A stretch of 39,764 nt of DNA from a virus (lineage: Duplodnaviria; Heunggongvirae; Uroviricota; Caudoviricetes), in IMG/VR virus record IMGVR_UViG_3300032167_000069. One strand, given 5' to 3'. Below the pieces are notes generated by a model that worked only from the letters and a program-made list of their open reading frames with translations, was not told the origin of the DNA and did no database searches. The position numbers and the translations under genes are program-made. The first letter of the stretch is position 1. Every line of letters begins with the position of its first letter. Of the stretch, positions 30,401-36,141 are shown piece by piece.

Positions 30401-30984
30401 CTGCTTGGACAAGAGAAACTCTTACTATGCAGGCGGCAGGAACTTCTGAAAACGCTTTCAGATTGTTTACTGGTACAGATGACGGTCGTTACTGCAACTG
30501 TGCTTTCTTGATGAAGAATTTGCTTGATAAGACACACGTTATGAACACCTCTAACGTCAACTCTGGCGGTTGGAAGGAATGTAATATGCGTGCTTGGTTA
30601 ACATCTCGTGTTCCCAATGGATTGCCTGCTCAGTGGCAGCTTATTCTCAAGAAGGTTGATGTAAGGTCAAGTACGGGTAATATGACTACAACTGATTTCA
30701 GTACGTCGAGCGACTATGTATGGATACCGTCTGCAAAAGAAGTTAATTTCTCTGCAACCACTGCTCCTTATTCTGGTGAAAGTGATGGCAAAATCAATTT
30801 CTTTACAGACAATAACAGTAGAATCAAGTACCTTAATAACGGTGCGGGTGCGGTTTACTATTGGTGGCTTCGTTCTCCGAGTGCTAGCTACACTACCAGC
30901 TTCTACCATGTCGTTACTACAGGTAGCTACACCAGCACCAACGCCAGCAACTCGTATGGCGTTTGCTTCGGCTTCTGTATTTAA
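24439..30984 (+). CDS. Giant tail fibre/adhesin and DGR1 target: LamG-like, CotH-kinase-like, LRR, InlB-B-like repeats and C-terminal C-type-lectin-fold (DUF6273-like) domain
   Basis: 2181 aa. DNRAKN and YDLDSCFG motifs (27721-27921); LRR-like stretch about 28600-29100; two YxVxF/W...FDGW repeats about 29295-29730; ends in WWLRSP...GVCFGFCI, which contains the VR. Confidence 0.85.
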   Translation: MTTTEFLGLILTDRTETSMPFLEWRTLMNGTDGNSNMELIDGAISRLNTAIGGKADGFSFSPDTGVLQLTSDGVPIDGASVTINLNNYYTKTEVDEILAELEESFANNETIQALMASAVSDLEWDETSRALTMYNMNGEQIGDTITIEGGGGGGTGTSYSVRIINGMPSSTFTAATSAKTIIKATFYEYYGTDSTGVNGTLEVTYKLSTDETWLSLGKQTVQQGVPFSIDVTDILTEGKTTSIKFTVVGGESEITRSLTYNVTQVEASIAAVNFDTAAVYTGNVSFQYKCVGRNLQKTVYFMIDGEEYTHVDVGTSHNTTLTQPIEMAGNYDYGAHDFQVYFETADGALSNILNFTLLYNDGSSTEPMIGVILDDDTVTYGDTITATYVVYTPNQETTDELNIRVYAINEDGEEENYFSQHLVNIDNNTAYEWQGTLYPESGTAYIEFTSGNTEKTVSVQVNEIQSEYDLDQIETGLVYQYNAAGRSNNDSSKDTYTCEYTTSNGVTTNIKGLFDGFNWVSNGYVDGESLTLSGTAVHTIKLPMFSTSYVDDDGQTINLESATGATVTTNGRTFEIDFQVSNVTDINAQIIKCMSSDHAGFIVTPQTCYLLSSNGANVALDDTGFIENEESIAAAYIKDNKRIRLSFVIEPTGSVEYTDSEGTTHTGQCVNIYINGQFANSFPYEDNARFAQSEYITLGSNTCIMNVYDVRIYNRGLSTTEIMQNYKASPLSVQDRIVRFEDNDVLTDEGDVDYNKAIYKYPCLLITGSLSPYKGANGIKTEGKTEAGATLTKPDGNGGYSVEFDLLDKDSDGVWVSSNNVQGTSSVKFPIKNYKVYLAKNEVGEDGTVTKKKVKYSLKGVDEDGNDISIGESTLCWKGDYMSSDHANTFNANLADTLFDDVLISQNPSLGGDSRVQNTIYGFRCLLFRRDDIGENIEFIGDGALNNDKGNTATFGLECDGDEGNDTLRQKWEFLNNTEALCSFLTDRFFELVDGKKRVLAGLESTYPDQGDLKDEGLEPKYDHLQVLYTWVCQRANFWDASTETLSVPLVYKGVSYTTERDYRKAIFINEFELHFNKNHALIYYLFNEFVALCDNRAKNMFLRCEDVRCEQLLNTSGEEMSIYDAINMETGEVDASMIDWENSTFAVWICDLYDLDSCFGVENSGYMQIPYYADWHYHLNGTQKFNGRESVFWLMFEEALADEIEDKAQLLTDRSSGNGGLNYESLYDYHIKNNAMLVCPAVVNRDMEHKYSDPWTEGYVDYASEGHPVRHISDYKYLQRGSRTEQKDAFIYRRSNMLYSKYKCNKFLNNNINFRVGTNGGVLATDSGITVTASQALYPAVKYGDGDAAVISVEKTAAGIPVTITKPGTTTADKVGFSDTVYIAGGTFLTDIGDISKFRPYELQLQNATGLKKLTIGSSEDGYTNAQLKSIDTSGCKILEELNIMGCTSLGTVNLSKNGLIRKIYAGNSSASSISLPNGGILEELYLGTVSDIEILNHTHLEAFTCDSYANLTALRVENTPNVPTMEMVAERLPYLTGGLRLVGIDETIEDTKVLEMLLSDDALGKYIDNNGVLSESKTIYPFISGTIHCDTIGSYLKSELEKVYPNLVIDATSVVQQYVVTFVNYDGSTLDKQYVIRGGRAEDPTTREDNPIATPTRPSTVSTNYTFDGWDTDLTTTVVSSDLTVSAIYSETTRQYTVKWYNGSTLLQKSTVLYGEGAEYTGDIPEDTSQEEYLSYRLFDGWDNNTGSIEGDLDVHAKFTEAVAPTDKALSEMTPTELYALIKTGKLSPSGENNDVITSGDEFDLVMGHDLDFDNVESTEFIALGDTKTFDGTSGSIINTGVNLFDEDKSFVLAIDFSFSDTTTGATLASCYQNNMGFKLTYTGSGAAVKYGSTNSTAVASQLDREMVVIRHIKGDTNLYVYGSNKMKSMVVSKVTRTLSSIQDAPLAFGCTMESDGYKDEYAKGKIYWAKLWMSDLGETNCKKLAAWTRETLTMQAAGTSENAFRLFTGTDDGRYCNCAFLMKNLLDKTHVMNTSNVNSGGWKECNMRAWLTSRVPNGLPAQWQLILKKVDVRSSTGNMTTTDFSTSSDYVWIPSAKEVNFSATTAPYSGESDGKINFFTDNNSRIKYLNNGAGAVYYWWLRSPSASYTTSFYHVVTTGSYTSTNASNSYGVCFGFCI
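30848..30978 (+). repeat. DGR1 variable repeat (VR)
   Basis: 131-bp ungapped match to 31608-31738 with 15 mismatches, all opposite TR adenines. Confidence 0.97.
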
Positions 30985-31113: not shown

Positions 31114-31136
31114 TATGCGTATGAAAGGGTGATTTT

Positions 31137-31553
31137 ATATCTGTTATTAAGAGCAAAAGAAGTGAATCAAATCTGCAATTTTTAGATACAGCGTATCAGT
31201 TGCATATATTCACTATTAAACAATGTACTAAATTTCCAAAACGATACACGTTTTATATATCCCAAGAGATAACAAAAACTACAACTGAGATATTAAAATG
31301 TGTTAAGTGTGCAAACAGTATCTTCCCCACTAACGCACACGAAGTACAAATACGAAGAGATTATTTTCTTCGTGCATACGCAGAAACTCAAGCTTTGATT
31401 TCTCTAATTAACGCCGCAAAAGAGCTATTTGATATTTCAGGAGCTACTCTTACGACGTGGATGGAAACAATTCAGCTTGAGCTTAATTTATTAAGGGGAA
31501 TTATGAAAAACGATAAAAGTAGATACAAAAATCTACTTGAAGACAAATCATAA
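31137..31553 (+). CDS. avd: DGR accessory variability determinant (Avd-like four-helix bundle), copy 1; ATA start
   Basis: The frame of ORF 31200..31553 extends upstream to ATA-SVIKSKRSESNLQFLDTAYQL...FPKRYTF; SD AAAGGGTGA precedes it; in-frame TGA at 31122; lies between VR and TR. Confidence 0.85.
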   Translation: MSVIKSKRSESNLQFLDTAYQLHIFTIKQCTKFPKRYTFYISQEITKTTTEILKCVKCANSIFPTNAHEVQIRRDYFLRAYAETQALISLINAAKELFDISGATLTTWMETIQLELNLLRGIMKNDKSRYKNLLEDKS

Positions 31554-31561
31554 ATAAACTA

Positions 31562-31975
31562 TGGGGTTTGTTCTACACGTTTTCTTTGTTTGTATGAGAC
31601 TTTGTTCGTGCGGTTTACAATTGGTGGCTTCGTTCTCCGAATGCAAGCAACACTACCAACTTCTACAATGTCAATACAACAGGTAGCAACAACAACAACA
31701 ACGCCAGCAACTCGAATGGCGTTTGCTTCGGATTCTGTGGGCGACAAACAATATTGTCGTATATCAAGATCAGACAAAGTAACTTCATTTGAAGCGAAAT
31801 CAGTATCTACTACAGAAGGAGAGCAAATCCCTCCTACTAAGGTAAACAGATGCCCTGATATGACTGACCGGACGCTGCTTGCATGGTTTTGTGATGGTAT
31901 TAACAAAATTTCATGGTCATTGTTATCGGCAACCACTTATACCAAACAGGAAACTGTATGTTGTACAGGGCATAT
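31562..31975 (+). ncRNA. Putative DGR1 RNA (leader-TR-structured spacer)
   Basis: GGGGTTTGTT (31563-31572) is complementary to AGCAAATCCC (31822-31831); ATGCCCTG (31850-31857) pairs with CAGGGCAT (31966-31973); several local hairpins. Confidence 0.65.
31608..31738 (+). repeat. DGR1 template repeat (TR1)
   Basis: Non-coding copy of the VR with 39 adenines, rich in AAC/AAT including (AAC)5. Confidence 0.97.
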
Positions 31976-31986
31976 TGAGGTGAAAA

Positions 31987-33114
31987 ATGACGAGCGAAGA
32001 AAGAAAAGAGGTAAGATATCAACGCAGAAAAGCTAAACGCATAAAAGCGAAGCAAAAGCGCAACTTACAATTTGATAATTTTGAAAGTGTATTTACTTAT
32101 GACCATCTTTTTGATGCTTATAGGAAATGTCGCAGAAACGTCAGATGGAAATCAAGCACTCAAAAATACATAGCTAATGCACCATTAAATGTTCTTGAAG
32201 CATATCAAAAGCTACATAATGGAACGTTTAAAAGTGATGGTTTTTACGAATTTGACTTATATGAAAGAGGAAAACCTCGACATATACGGAGTGTTACTAT
32301 GGCTGAAAGAGTTGTTCAACGATGTTTGTGCGACCACTCTCTTGTTCCTGTTTTAACGAACACATTTATTTATGACAATGGTGCCAGTCTAAAAGATAAA
32401 GGTTACAGTTTTGCAGTTAATCGTATCATACGACATATACATTGGCACTATCGAAATTACGGAAGTACAGGATATGTTTTACTATTTGATTTTTCAAGTT
32501 TCTTTGATAGTATTCCACATACTTTAATCAAAGAAATACTTGCCGAGGAATACACCGACAAAAGACTTATTGCACTTATTGAACATTTCGTAGATATGTT
32601 CGGTGACATAGGGCTTGGATTAGGAAGTCAAATATCTCAAGTTTTGGCTCTTGCTTCAGCAAACAGATTAGACCATTTTGTAAAAGAAAAGTTGCAAATT
32701 AAATGCTACGGAAGATATATGGATGATGGTTACTTAATTCATCACGACAAACAATATTTGATTGAATGCTTAGAAAAGTTAAAACAAAAATGTGATGAGC
32801 TCGGATTAAATCTAAACTTAAAGAAAACACACATTGTTCCATTAACCAGAGATTTTCAGTGGTTGAAAATTAAATTCAGACTTACTGACTCTGGATATAT
32901 TGTAAAAAGGGTTTGGAAGAAAAGTGTTGTTCGTATGCGTAGAAAAATGAAAAAATTAAAGAAAAAGCTTGATGCTGGGTTGGTAACATTCCCTGATATC
33001 GTCGCATCGTATGAATCGTGGAAAAGTCATACACTAAAGCTTAATGTATATAAGACTATTTCCTCTATGGATAAATTGTATTTTACCTTATTTCAAAGAG
33101 AGGTGACTGTATGA
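31987..33114 (+). CDS. DGR reverse transcriptase 1
   Basis: 375 aa; LFDFSSFF, GLGLGSQISQ (DGR-type GxxxSQ) and YGRYMDD motifs; basic C-terminus; no endonuclease domain. Confidence 0.97.
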   Translation: MTSEERKEVRYQRRKAKRIKAKQKRNLQFDNFESVFTYDHLFDAYRKCRRNVRWKSSTQKYIANAPLNVLEAYQKLHNGTFKSDGFYEFDLYERGKPRHIRSVTMAERVVQRCLCDHSLVPVLTNTFIYDNGASLKDKGYSFAVNRIIRHIHWHYRNYGSTGYVLLFDFSSFFDSIPHTLIKEILAEEYTDKRLIALIEHFVDMFGDIGLGLGSQISQVLALASANRLDHFVKEKLQIKCYGRYMDDGYLIHHDKQYLIECLEKLKQKCDELGLNLNLKKTHIVPLTRDFQWLKIKFRLTDSGYIVKRVWKKSVVRMRRKMKKLKKKLDAGLVTFPDIVASYESWKSHTLKLNVYKTISSMDKLYFTLFQREVTV

Positions 33115-33893
33115 ACTTTTATAAAGTCGTTTTAAACGATAAGATTATAGACGTTCTTGAAAATCCTGCTTGGGTAAAACAAAGCAAAAATGGCTTGATA
33201 GTTCTCTGTGAGGTTACAGAAGCAATTGGTATTGTTTCATCTGATTCAGAAACAATTCTACATATTGAAGGCAAACCGCCTTTTTCTAATGCTGAATATC
33301 AAGATGTCATTTTGGCTGATATTACCGAGGATGAAGCCGAAGAGCTTAAAGTTCTATTAAATTTGGGTGCTGATATAACCGATTCCGATGAAAATGTTGA
33401 ATGGACTGAGGACGAGGTAGTTGAAGAGCCAATTGAAGAGGATGCTACTTTAGCTGAAGTTAAAGAACGTCATTTGGAAAGGCTCAGTAACGATTGCCAG
33501 AACACTATATATGCTGGTATCAATGTTACATTAACCGATGGCTCTGTTCGTCACTTTGATTTGGAGATTGAAGACCAACTTAATTTGCTAACTTTGTCAA
33601 CACTGGTGGCAACTGGAGAAACTTCTATTCCTTATCACGCTTCGGACGAACTTTGCACTTATTACAGTGTTGAAGATATATTAAAAATAATTGACACCGC
33701 AACAGTTTTCAAAACATATCATACTTCCTATTACAACAGCTTAAAAAACTGGGTTATGTCTATGGATAGTATCGCAGAGGTTGGAAATGTTGTTTACGGT
33801 GTAGAAATTCCGCCTGAATACTGTTCCGAGGTTCTATTGGAGCTTATGCAAAAGTTAAGTGCAGAAGGTGTTGTAAATGAAATGGCTGAGTAA
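33111..33893 (+). CDS. DUF4376-like protein (putative tail fibre assembly factor)
   Basis: 260 aa, ATGA overlap with the RT1 stop; C-terminal LAEVKERHLERLSNDCQNTIYAG...HFDLEIEDQLNL pattern. Confidence 0.55.
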   Translation: MNFYKVVLNDKIIDVLENPAWVKQSKNGLIVLCEVTEAIGIVSSDSETILHIEGKPPFSNAEYQDVILADITEDEAEELKVLLNLGADITDSDENVEWTEDEVVEEPIEEDATLAEVKERHLERLSNDCQNTIYAGINVTLTDGSVRHFDLEIEDQLNLLTLSTLVATGETSIPYHASDELCTYYSVEDILKIIDTATVFKTYHTSYYNSLKNWVMSMDSIAEVGNVVYGVEIPPEYCSEVLLELMQKLSAEGVVNEMAE

Positions 33894-34305
33894 GCATTTC
33901 GTTCTCTTTCTGATAGGCGGAACTTTATATATCATCATTGAAATTATATGGAGAAAGATATTTGGAAGTCAACCCACTCATTGGACTATGTTTCTACTGG
34001 GTGGATTGGCTTTTATATTTATTGGATTAATCAACGAATATTTACCGTGGAAAACTCCACTTTGGCTTCAATGTTTGATAGGAACTCTTTTGGTACTCTT
34101 ACTTGAATTTGTTTTTGGATGCGTATTAAATTTATGGTTAAATCTCAATATTTGGGATTATTCCAACACTCCATTTAACATCTTAGGACAAGTTTGTCTG
34201 CCATTTGCTTTTGCTTGGTATTTCTTAACCGCAGTTGCAATTATATTGGACGACTACCTAAGATATTGGCTATTCAACGAAGAGAAACCAAAATATTATA
34301 TTTAA
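33877..34305 (+). CDS. Four-TM membrane protein (ABC_trans_CmpB-like family)
   Basis: LFLIGGTLYIIIEIIWR...THWTMFLLGG...WDYSNTPFNILGQVCLPF motif. Confidence 0.75.
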   Translation: MKWLSKHFVLFLIGGTLYIIIEIIWRKIFGSQPTHWTMFLLGGLAFIFIGLINEYLPWKTPLWLQCLIGTLLVLLLEFVFGCVLNLWLNLNIWDYSNTPFNILGQVCLPFAFAWYFLTAVAIILDDYLRYWLFNEEKPKYYI

Positions 34306-34317
34306 GGAGCGTTATGA

Positions 34318-34731
34318 ATGAATCAAAGGTCTCAGGAAATTTTTAATAAGAACGACGAACTAAAAGTAATCGTTCTCACTAAAAGGCTTATAAAGCACAC
34401 AATGAAACTTACAAATAATTCTGAACGCTATCCTAAGAAAGCACGATTTACTCTTGTTGACCCAATGCAGAAAACTGTCATTGAAATATACAAACTTTTA
34501 ATGAAAGCAAATTATATGAACACAAATATAAAAGCCCAGTTTGACAGAAGACAACTCTGTCAGTCTGAGGCTATTTATATGTGTGATATTCTTTTGCTCT
34601 ACATTGAGCTTTCACTTGATGAAAATTATATAAATGACAAGAGCTGCGAGTATTGGGTTAGACAGGTTATGGATGTAAAAAGAATGATACTGTCGTGGAA
34701 AAATGCAGACAGTAAACGTTCTAATTTTTAA
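34318..34731 (+). CDS. avd: DGR accessory variability determinant (Avd-like), copy 2
   Basis: 137 aa; ELKVIVLTKRLIKHT...YPKKARFTLVDPMQ...YWVRQVMDVKRMILSWK; directly upstream of a TR-like sequence and an RT. Confidence 0.9.
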   Translation: MNQRSQEIFNKNDELKVIVLTKRLIKHTMKLTNNSERYPKKARFTLVDPMQKTVIEIYKLLMKANYMNTNIKAQFDRRQLCQSEAIYMCDILLLYIELSLDENYINDKSCEYWVRQVMDVKRMILSWKNADSKRSNF

Positions 34732-34738
34732 TATACAT

Positions 34739-34960
34739 TGGGGTATGTTTTGAAATATTGCTCCGTTCTCCCAATGCCGACAATGGTTACAACGTCAGGT
34801 ACGTCAATCGTGACGGTGATTACAACTATTGCAATGCGTATAATGGCATTTTGGGTGTCCGTCCCGCTTCGGTGATATGATTAGACTAAGTAAGCAATAG
34901 GCTGAAAACAACATCTTCACTACCAAAGGAAAGCATATCCCGTCCTTTATAGGATAAATA
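34739..34960 (+). ncRNA. Putative DGR2 RNA scaffold
   Basis: GGGGTATGTT (34740-34749) is complementary to AGCATATCCC (34932-34941); the spacer aligns with the DGR1 spacer. Confidence 0.65.
34761..34870 (+). repeat. DGR2 template repeat (TR2), boundaries approximate
   Basis: Non-coding segment between avd2 and RT2 that translates as LRSPNADNGYNVRYVNRDGDYNYCNAYNGILGVRPAS, in the same lectin-fold register as TR1. Confidence 0.85.
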
Positions 34961-35034
34961 CAAAACCGTTGATGCACTGTGTCTTTGAACACTGGCTATA
35001 CACAATGGAAACTGAATTTAAGGAGTATGAGAAA

Positions 35035-36141
35035 ATGTACGAAGAAATTTATGGATTTTCAAATATAAAACGAGCATTTTATAATTCTCGGCACGGCAAG
35101 CTTAATAATCCTTCTGCAAACAAATTTGAAATTAATATGCTTACTGAATGCGTGCAATTATCTGATGAATTAAAAGATAGACATTACTCTACTGGGAAAT
35201 CAAACAAATTTACTGTTTATTATCCCAAAGAAAGAAATATAGAGTCCTGCCCTTTTAAAGATAAGATAGTTCAACATTCGTATTGTGACAACGTTTTATA
35301 TCCTATGGTTTGCAACAAATTTATATATGACAATTATGCGTCACAATTTGGTAAAGGAATTCATTTTGGTTTGGATAGATTACAGGGGCATTTACGTCAC
35401 TATTTCTTTTCAAACAAAGCCGCTGCTGAAAAATATAGAAGAGAAAATAATTTACCTTTCGTGCCGGTTGAGCAAGGTCATTATGCTGACGGGTGGATTT
35501 TAAAGTGTGATATTAAAAAATTCTTTGCTCACATCAACCACGATTTGGTAAAAGAGAAGATACATAAATTATTCGACAATGCAGATATCGAATGGCTATC
35601 TAATATCATTATTGATTCTGTCAGCATAGATAATGGTGTTGGACTCCCTATCGGGTATCAAAGCAGTCAATTATACGCCTTAATATTACTTAATGATATG
35701 GATCATCTTATAAAAGAAAAATTACATATTAAAGGCTACGGCAGATATGTTGATGATTTTTATTTAATACACAAAGACAAAGCATATTTGCAATATTGCC
35801 TCAAAGTCATTACCGACTATTTGACGGAGTATGGTTTGGAGCTTAATAAGAAAACACAAATTCTTCCGATGAAGAACGGAATTGACTTTCTGGGATTTCA
35901 TACCTATCTGACAGATACGGGTAAGGTGGTCTGCAAGCTTCGTAAAAGAAGCAAGGAGAATGTTAAACGCAAATTAAAGAAATTTGCAAAATGTTACAGT
36001 GAGGGCACGATGACTATGAGAAAAATCAAGGATTCGTATTGTAGTTGGCGTGCCCACGCTTCATATGGAAATACATATCATTTAATTCGTAAAATGGACA
36101 ACTATTATTTTGAATTATTTGGTCAGCATTTTAATGATTGA
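35035..36141 (+). CDS. DGR reverse transcriptase 2
   Basis: LKCDIKKFF, GLPIGYQSSQ and YGRYVDD motifs. ATG at 35035 has an AAGGAG SD; alternative in-frame starts at 34969 and 35005. Confidence 0.95.
   Translation: MYEEIYGFSNIKRAFYNSRHGKLNNPSANKFEINMLTECVQLSDELKDRHYSTGKSNKFTVYYPKERNIESCPFKDKIVQHSYCDNVLYPMVCNKFIYDNYASQFGKGIHFGLDRLQGHLRHYFFSNKAAAEKYRRENNLPFVPVEQGHYADGWILKCDIKKFFAHINHDLVKEKIHKLFDNADIEWLSNIIIDSVSIDNGVGLPIGYQSSQLYALILLNDMDHLIKEKLHIKGYGRYVDDFYLIHKDKAYLQYCLKVITDYLTEYGLELNKKTQILPMKNGIDFLGFHTYLTDTGKVVCKLRKRSKENVKRKLKKFAKCYSEGTMTMRKIKDSYCSWRAHASYGNTYHLIRKMDNYYFELFGQHFND

Follow-up and report, generated by a model that had tools for sequence, protein, structure and literature searches.

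The window analysed here is a stretch of 39,764 nucleotides (nt) from a virus of the Caudoviricetes and is part of the 96.9-kb IMG/VR virus record IMGVR_UViG_3300032167_000069. It contains two cassettes, each of which codes for an Avd protein and a reverse transcriptase (RT) of the type found in diversity-generating retroelements (DGRs). In both cassettes a 12-nt segment just past the avd stop codon pairs with a 12-nt segment in the spacer that lies between the template repeat (TR) and the RT gene. This long-range stem is real and is kept by compensatory evolution in about 50 related elements. The stem, the primer strand next to it and the stop element very probably represent the arrangement that is called cPRT Stop in the DGR of Bordetella phage BPP-1; they are a well-supported new example of a known stop duplex and not a new mechanism. 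The strands of the two stems are as follows.

31563-31574, + strand: 5' strand of the cassette 1 stem, GGGGUUUGUUCU, 9 nt past the avd1 stop
31820-31831, + strand: 3' strand of the cassette 1 stem ('stop' strand), AGAGCAAAUCCC, pairs with 31563-31574
34740-34751, + strand: 5' strand of the cassette 2 stem, GGGGUAUGUUUU, 8 nt past the avd2 stop
34930-34941, + strand: 3' strand of the cassette 2 stem, AAAGCAUAUCCC, pairs with 34740-34751

A preliminary description of this DNA had proposed that both cassettes share one DGR RNA architecture, in which the TR is looped out by pairing between the spacer and the segment that follows avd. It rested on the motifs GGGGTTTGTT (31563-31572) and GGGGTATGTT (34740-34749), which begin 9 and 8 nt after the avd1 and avd2 TAA, and on their partners AGCAAATCCC (31822-31831) and AGCATATCCC (34932-34941). 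All four motifs are present at these positions. They are fully complementary over 10 bp in each cassette, with two G-U pairs each, and the single position that differs between the cassettes (position 6) covaries, being T-A in one and A-T in the other. Its full length exceeds what was described: two further pairs per cassette extend the stem to 12 bp and add a second pair that covaries between the cassettes (C-G versus U-A). The predicted energies of the 12-bp duplexes are -16.4 kcal/mol in cassette 1 and -14.3 kcal/mol in cassette 2. When the spacer strand was shuffled and the best ungapped 12-mer was sought in the 218 nt upstream, at least 11 of 12 pairs were reached in 2.9% of the trials; a chance origin of the stem is excluded because the shuffles reached 12/12 in only 5 of 5000 trials.

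A search with RT1 and RT2 retrieved 78 related IMG/VR loci. A strict regular expression for AGACNAAGTA recovered only a minority of these relatives, and a covariance model of our own, built on the first ~100 nt of the spacer, was used instead. This model found 68 spacer copies in the 78 loci. In 66 of the 68 copies the aligned stop strand has a partner 12-mer with 11 or 12 pairs out of 12, and in all 66 loci this 12-mer starts 2-10 nt past the stop of an open reading frame (ORF) of 123-168 codons. The two exceptions (L023 and L007, each at ~1420-1700) have coding sequence of the target gene upstream of the spacer instead of avd and the stem strand. They look like a collapse between the TR and the variable repeat (VR), which may be an artefact of the assembly or may reflect a true VR-TR deletion.

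The first alignment (A3) comprises 25 distinct sequences from the avd stop through the spacer. Among these rows, which were picked for pairing at 11 or more of the 12 positions, 97.3% of the stem cells are paired. In nine of the 12 pairs both partners have changed, one position showing as many as six types of pair, and none of 500 shuffles matched the observed values of pairing and covariation. When the partner strand was slid by 1-3 columns, pairing fell to 36-52%. Changes were counted on a tree from which the helix columns had been left out. Of the ten variable pairs, eight require 4-10 changes each and the other two just 1-2; the signal therefore does not stem from one inherited event. G-U pairs are frequent and strand-specific (e.g., U-G in 18 of 25 sequences at one position), which shows that the pairing takes place in RNA of the + strand.

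An independent set of 80 further loci from genome contigs, which are metagenome-assembled genomes (MAGs) of Clostridia, gave the same picture. The spacer model matches 31 of the 80 loci, the stem has at least 11 of 12 pairs in 26 of these 31, and 25 of the 26 stems start between -2 and +11 nt from the stop of an ORF of 123-187 codons. In the alignment of this set (A6; 24 distinct sequences selected by the same rule) 97.2% of the cells are paired and 10 of 12 pairs are compensatory, compared with 40-56% paired in the slid controls. The difference between the two cassettes is compensatory, and 9-10 of the 12 pairs covary in the two independent sets. The sole invariant pairs in both alignments are the G:C pairs at stop-strand positions 10-11, beside the short stem-loop; the other ten vary freely. 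The UAAA after that stem-loop is invariant in A3 and A6 as well.

In three of the five remaining genome loci (L092, L094 and L095; Oscillospiraceae, Clostridiales) the stem is apparently present with one bulged nucleotide. The ungapped 12-mer criterion misses this subfamily.

The strands around the stop strand were compared with the solved system.

31733-31740, + strand: cassette 1 template strand, UUCUGUGG, 8 bp with 31810-31817, -10.6 kcal/mol; the family columns covary
31810-31819, + strand: cassette 1 primer strand CUACAGAA and GG linker (31818-31819); ends at the predicted priming A31817
31833-31842 and 31843-31846, + strand: cassette 1 short stem-loop CCU-ACUA-AGG, followed by UAAA
34921-34929, + strand: cassette 2 primer strand UACCAAA and GG linker; ends at the predicted priming A34927
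34943-34954 and 34955-34958, + strand: cassette 2 short stem-loop UCCU-UUAU-AGGA, followed by UAAA; also in the centroid fold of the isolated spacer

In the family alignment 100% of the cells of the short stem-loop are paired and two of its three pairs covary; longer inserts in some relatives lengthen it. The columns of the template:primer duplex covary at three positions in the clade that is aligned in register. In the L042-type clade the register of this duplex is off by one column in A3, and its members were counted as unpaired. Three pairings, namely those of the long-range stem, of the short stem-loop and of template with primer, are kept by compensatory evolution; the two G:C pairs show no change, nor does UAAA.

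The structure of the RT-Avd-RNA complex of BPP-1 has been solved (Handa, Biswas, Chakraborty, Ghosh, Paul, Ghosh; bioRxiv 10.1101/2023.10.23.563531). In the spacer (Sp) of that RNA, Sp3-33 is the Avd-binding stem-loop, TR117-129 is the partner of Sp47-56, whose last nucleotide is the priming A56, and G57 and C58 form a linker. Sp59-70 then pairs with avd369-379, Sp71-78 forms a 2-bp stem-loop, and A80 and A81 make A-minor contacts to the G:C pairs of C69 and C68. The cPRT Stop is essential to cis-primed reverse transcription, and the cDNA ends just before it (10.1101/2023.10.23.563531). The BPP-1 sequence fits the published numbering: UAGGUGGUCA up to A56, GC, CGGUUCUGUCCU (12 nt, with C68 and C69 at positions 10-11), GCUUCGGC (the 2-bp UUCG stem-loop) and GAA. 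The order in cassette 1 is CUACAGAA (ending in A31817), GG, AGAGCAAAUCCC, U, CCU-ACUA-AGG and UAAA, and that in cassette 2 is UACCAAA (ending in A34927), GG, AAAGCAUAUCCC, G, UCCU-UUAU-AGGA and UAAA.

Several features of a cPRT Stop are found in both cassettes. As in BPP-1, a segment just upstream of the TR forms a duplex with a 12-nt spacer strand, the stop strand begins 2 nt past a primer strand that ends in A, and a short stem-loop follows directly, with adenosines after it. As in BPP-1, too, the G's that occupy positions 2-3 in the upstream strand have the C's at stop-strand positions 10-11 as their partners, and these two invariant pairs occupy the positions of C68 and C69. The surroundings also agree, with a first spacer stem-loop upstream and a single-stranded A-rich stretch and a long stem downstream. 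There are differences in detail. The upstream strand lies 8-9 nt past the avd stop here and within the last avd codons in BPP-1; the duplex has 12 uninterrupted pairs here and 11 pairs plus an unpaired U63 in BPP-1, which the apparent one-nt bulge in L092, L094 and L095 resembles. The short stem-loop has 3-4 bp and 4-nt loops instead of 2 bp and UUCG, the linker is GG instead of GC, and the first spacer stem-loop contains a large conserved internal loop, whereas that of BPP-1 is an 11-bp stem. The invariance of the two G:C pairs and of UAAA is what A-minor docking would predict, and a contact of this kind may exist here.

On this basis, the following sequence of events can be proposed. In each cassette one transcript would carry the end of avd, the TR, the structured spacer and the start of the RT gene. 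The 12-nt segment after the avd stop would pair with the 12-nt spacer segment and close the TR into a loop. The primer strand, which is joined by the 2-nt GG linker to the 5' end of the stop strand, would pair with the 3' end of the TR and end in an adenosine. As it does in BPP-1, the cPRT Stop, consisting of the duplex, the stem-loop and two adenosines, would position the template:primer duplex in the active site of the RT, so that the 2'-OH of the spacer adenosine could prime cDNA synthesis, and it would also block the polymerase at the far end of the TR. Judging from the homology of layout, priming is predicted at A31817 and A34927 and termination just before 31574 and 34751; the A-minor contacts and the protein binding sites are likewise putative.

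Several points weigh against this interpretation. In Bordetella, compensatory mutations failed to rescue cDNA synthesis, which means that pairing alone is insufficient there (10.1101/2023.10.23.563531); this engineered compensation failed, whereas natural compensatory variation is abundant here. The priming site, the stop site and the protein contacts would all be transferred from one solved system, the RT and Avd of which are distant from the proteins here. The choice of alignment rows with at least 11/12 pairs inflates the percentages of paired cells, but not the covariation or the slid controls. The remaining points concern cassette 2. The register of its template:primer duplex is ambiguous, with three registers at about -6 kcal/mol, of which the alignment favours 34868-34874 with 34921-34927. 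Its spacer (34876-35006; 30.5 bits, E 1.5e-4) scores under the gathering threshold of 40 of the Rfam motif RT-2, which is described below. Finally, cassette 2 has no detectable VR, so that its activity is putative.

Duplexes of the cPRT Stop type have been predicted in 207 of 278 Avd-containing DGRs, Bacillota included, from single-sequence MxFold2 folds of concatenated flanks; an adjacent stem-loop is present in 47 predicted cases, and adenosines follow in all but two of these (10.1101/2023.10.23.563531). Compared with those predictions, the present analysis provides covariation with controls in one family and defines which positions are invariant and which are free. In a large clade of DGRs from phages of gut and rumen Clostridia, far from the solved example, it supports three helices by comparison of relatives: the stop duplex, the stem-loop next to it and the template:primer duplex. 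Furthermore, the separation of free from invariant pairs is a guide for the retargeting of DGRs, as it indicates which flanking nucleotides can be changed.

The analysis also links an orphan RNA motif to a defined role as DGR spacer RNA. RT-2 (Rfam RF03077) is one of the motifs RT-1 to RT-19 that are found beside reverse transcriptase genes (Weinberg et al. 2017, PMC5737381). That paper went no further than suggesting that these motifs might be part of retroelements, DGRs for example. The spacer of cassette 1 is an RT-2 RNA: 31765-31993 matches model positions 1-222 with 132.6 bits (gathering threshold 40). The spacer of cassette 2 matches the 5' half of RT-2; its 3' domain is absent, and a short stem replaces 113 model positions. 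The RT-2 model starts downstream of the TR and marks the stop strand and the purine-rich primer strand as unpaired. It hence misses two helices that involve the template region, namely the long-range stem and the template:primer duplex. Neither the RT-2 identity of the spacer nor the cPRT Stop of Bordetella was mentioned in the preliminary description.

A comparable arrangement exists in retrons. The msr-msd RNA of a retron contains the inverted repeats a1 and a2 and a guanosine that primes with its 2'-OH. In both systems a stem of sequences that flank the template closes a loop, and a 2'-OH on that RNA itself primes the cDNA. Retrons differ in that their RT belongs to another clade, they have no Avd, no TR/VR and no adenine mutagenesis, and the priming G lies next to the a2 arm.

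In the preliminary description, a conserved local hairpin (AGGAG/CUCCU in cassette 1 and AAAGGA/UCCUUU in cassette 2) carried the partner strand in its loop. The long-range stem would then be a pseudoknot, or the hairpin could be a regulated 'off' conformer. The complementary arms are present in the sequence. The hairpin is the minimum-free-energy fold of an isolated 39-nt segment of cassette 1 (-5.5 kcal/mol), RNAalifold on isolated spacers chooses its core GGA/UCC, and columns 271 and 285 covary (12 sequences have G-C and 8 have A-U). Resting states in which the stop element is disengaged also occur in the Bordetella ribonucleoprotein (RNP). However, the family alignment shows that the registers of the hairpin differ between the cassettes. 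When both registers were tested, 73% of the cells were paired in that of cassette 1 and 53% in that of cassette 2, no better than the 69-73% obtained with partners slid by 1-3 columns. The arms of the hairpin share nucleotides with two far better supported elements, the outer two pairs of the 12-bp stem and, at its 5' arm, the short stem-loop. The only column of the hairpin that covaries tracks one deep split in the tree. Furthermore, the centroid fold of cassette 2 shows the short stem-loop and not the local hairpin. We rejected the hairpin as a conserved element; at most it would be an inactive conformer. The stem is also not a pseudoknot, because the four strands (stem strand, TR 3' end, primer strand, stop strand) are nested in their order. 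Together, these results make either version of the hairpin model unlikely. Note that RNAalifold gave almost no structure on the isolated spacers because the main helices need their upstream partner strands.

A different question is whether the sequence of the helix serves as an address, such that the two-pair difference makes each RT-Avd assemble only on its own template RNA and insulates the two DGRs from each other. The cassettes are indeed two separate systems that coexist: RT1 and RT2 are 33% identical, and BLASTP gives no alignment between the avd1 and avd2 products, though both match the Avd PHROG. The mismatches that the preliminary description expected for cross-pairing between the cassettes are also present, and the crossed duplexes are weaker than the cognate ones (-9.3 and -10.2 versus -16.4 and -14.3 kcal/mol). 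The effect is weak, however, since the crossed strands still form 10/12 and 11/12 pairs, and non-cognate strands of other loci reach at least 11/12 in 7% of the cases. Moreover, both strands of each stem are located on one RNA, so that pairing in cis wins regardless. In the tree of relatives the two cassettes fall in different deep clades, and their difference is therefore inherited divergence and was not driven by co-residence. The difference gives little insulation, and a role of the helix as an address is quite improbable. It is speculative, and in our view unlikely, that the map of free and fixed pairs explains why the compensatory mutants failed in Bordetella and that the free part is a per-cassette address which lets two unrelated DGRs coexist without cross-assembly.

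That the complementarity works on the level of DNA or transcription, as a recombination inverted repeat, a terminator or an attenuator unrelated to reverse transcription, is barely conceivable: inverted repeats commonly flank mobile-like segments, and L023 and L007 have a VR/TR junction without avd, but in DNA, or on the opposite strand, the frequent strand-specific G-U pairs would become A-C mismatches, 145-270 nt separate the arms and no T-run is present, and the distances to the primer strand, the stem-loop and UAAA are constant to the nucleotide and agree with the solved RNP.

The remaining elements of the two spacers surround the cPRT Stop proposed above.

31742-31759, + strand: cassette 1 extra hairpin CGACAA/UUGUCG, 6 bp, lineage-specific, between TR1 and the spacer core
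31768-31807, + strand: cassette 1 first spacer stem-loop, RT-2 P1 with the internal loop AGACAAAGUAA / CGAAAUCAG; Rfam RT-2 alignment; the inner hairpin covaries
31847-31986, + strand: cassette 1 large 3' domain of RT-2, reaches the RT1 start; within the RF03077 match
34879-34915, + strand: cassette 2 first spacer stem-loop, internal loop as in cassette 1; partial RT-2 match, own model R1 68.1 bits
34966-35008, + strand: cassette 2 compact two-part 3' stem-loop with a 6-bp outer stem CCGUUG/CAAUGG, replaces the large RT-2 3' domain

The motif that precedes the primer strand in both cassettes, GATCAGACAAAGTAA (31768-31782) and GATTAGACTAAGTAA (34879-34893), is followed by a small hairpin and GAAA, as was noticed early on, and belongs to the first spacer stem-loop. 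From its position, this stem-loop would correspond to the Avd-binding stem-loop of BPP-1. Its conserved internal loop, AGACNAAGUAA / GAAA, is common to both cassettes even though the Avd proteins have no BLASTP similarity; a conserved surface may recognise it, or the RT may do so. The 3' domain of cassette 1 would, again by its position, correspond to the thumb ring and the RT-binding stem. The compact 3' stem-loop folds in W2 and in L038 (1911-1955), with several compensatory changes in the outer stem. It covers ATG 35005, and RT2 therefore probably starts at ATG 35036, which follows AAGGAG. At the site of the extra hairpin of cassette 1 the closest genome relative (L082) has a different sequence, which is also capable of forming a hairpin (CGAUA/UAUCG, by eye).

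The genes and template repeats of the two cassettes are listed here.

31125-31553, + strand: avd1; PHROG 3206 'Avd protein of DGR', E 7e-10, residues 7-140 of the frame from 31125
31608-31738, + strand: TR1; partner of VR1 (30848-30978), which ends a 2181-aa tail-fibre ORF
31987-33114, + strand: RT1, DGR reverse transcriptase; Pfam RVT_1, E 7e-16
34318-34731, + strand: avd2; PHROG 3206, E 1e-17; Pfam bAvd 24.6 bits, under the cutoff
34760-34874, + strand: TR2, approximate limits; favoured template strand UUCGGUG at 34868-34874
35005-36141, + strand: RT2; Pfam RVT_1, E 2e-16; start 35005 or 35036

The nearest relatives of the RTs are in Clostridia MAGs from the gut of goat, sheep and deer (Oscillospiraceae, Lachnospiraceae, Christensenella), and the phage is one of gut Clostridia. 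The frame of avd1 is open from 31125 and stops with TAA at 31551-31553. The Avd profile match begins at residue 7 of this frame, yet the first ATG, GTG or TTG is the TTG at 31200, and the short form that starts there gave no Pfam match. This would fit a non-canonical start of avd1 or a truncated gene.

Cassette 1 is a DGR by its RVT_1 domain, its match to Avd PHROG 3206 and a TR/VR pair that differs only at TR adenines: TR1 and VR1 have 15 differences, every one of them at an adenine of the TR. Cassette 2 has an intact RT, Avd and spacer RNA, and a TR-like template for a lectin fold. No VR2 turned up in an A-tolerant scan that covered the window and the entire 96.9-kb record, or with blastn (word size 7) or tblastx; the only match in these searches was a weak paralogous similarity to TR1/VR1. 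The limits of TR2 are approximate because no VR partner was found. The completeness of the record is estimated at 82%, so that the VR2 target might be located in the portion of the phage genome that is missing, or else in the host genome.

In the template:primer region of the relatives, a conserved A.C mismatch adjoins the priming end in most members of the clade that is aligned in register. At A3 columns 184/185, which face columns 268/267 (window 34870 with 34925), the TR has C and the VR has U.

The first templated nucleotide in cassette 1 is predicted to be A31732, which lies directly 5' of the template:primer duplex and reads C in VR1 (30972). An explanation of this change as mutagenesis at the initiation site was dropped; the same A-to-C change is present in W1, L004, L018, L031, L083, L088 and L090. 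Because it recurs in these seven loci, it is more likely a fixed TR/VR difference than the product of random adenine mutagenesis. Either the base at 31732 is not transferred by homing or the first incorporated nucleotide would be non-random. In the L042-type clade the aligned A is represented by A, G or T across the VRs, which means that copying reaches the equivalent position there.

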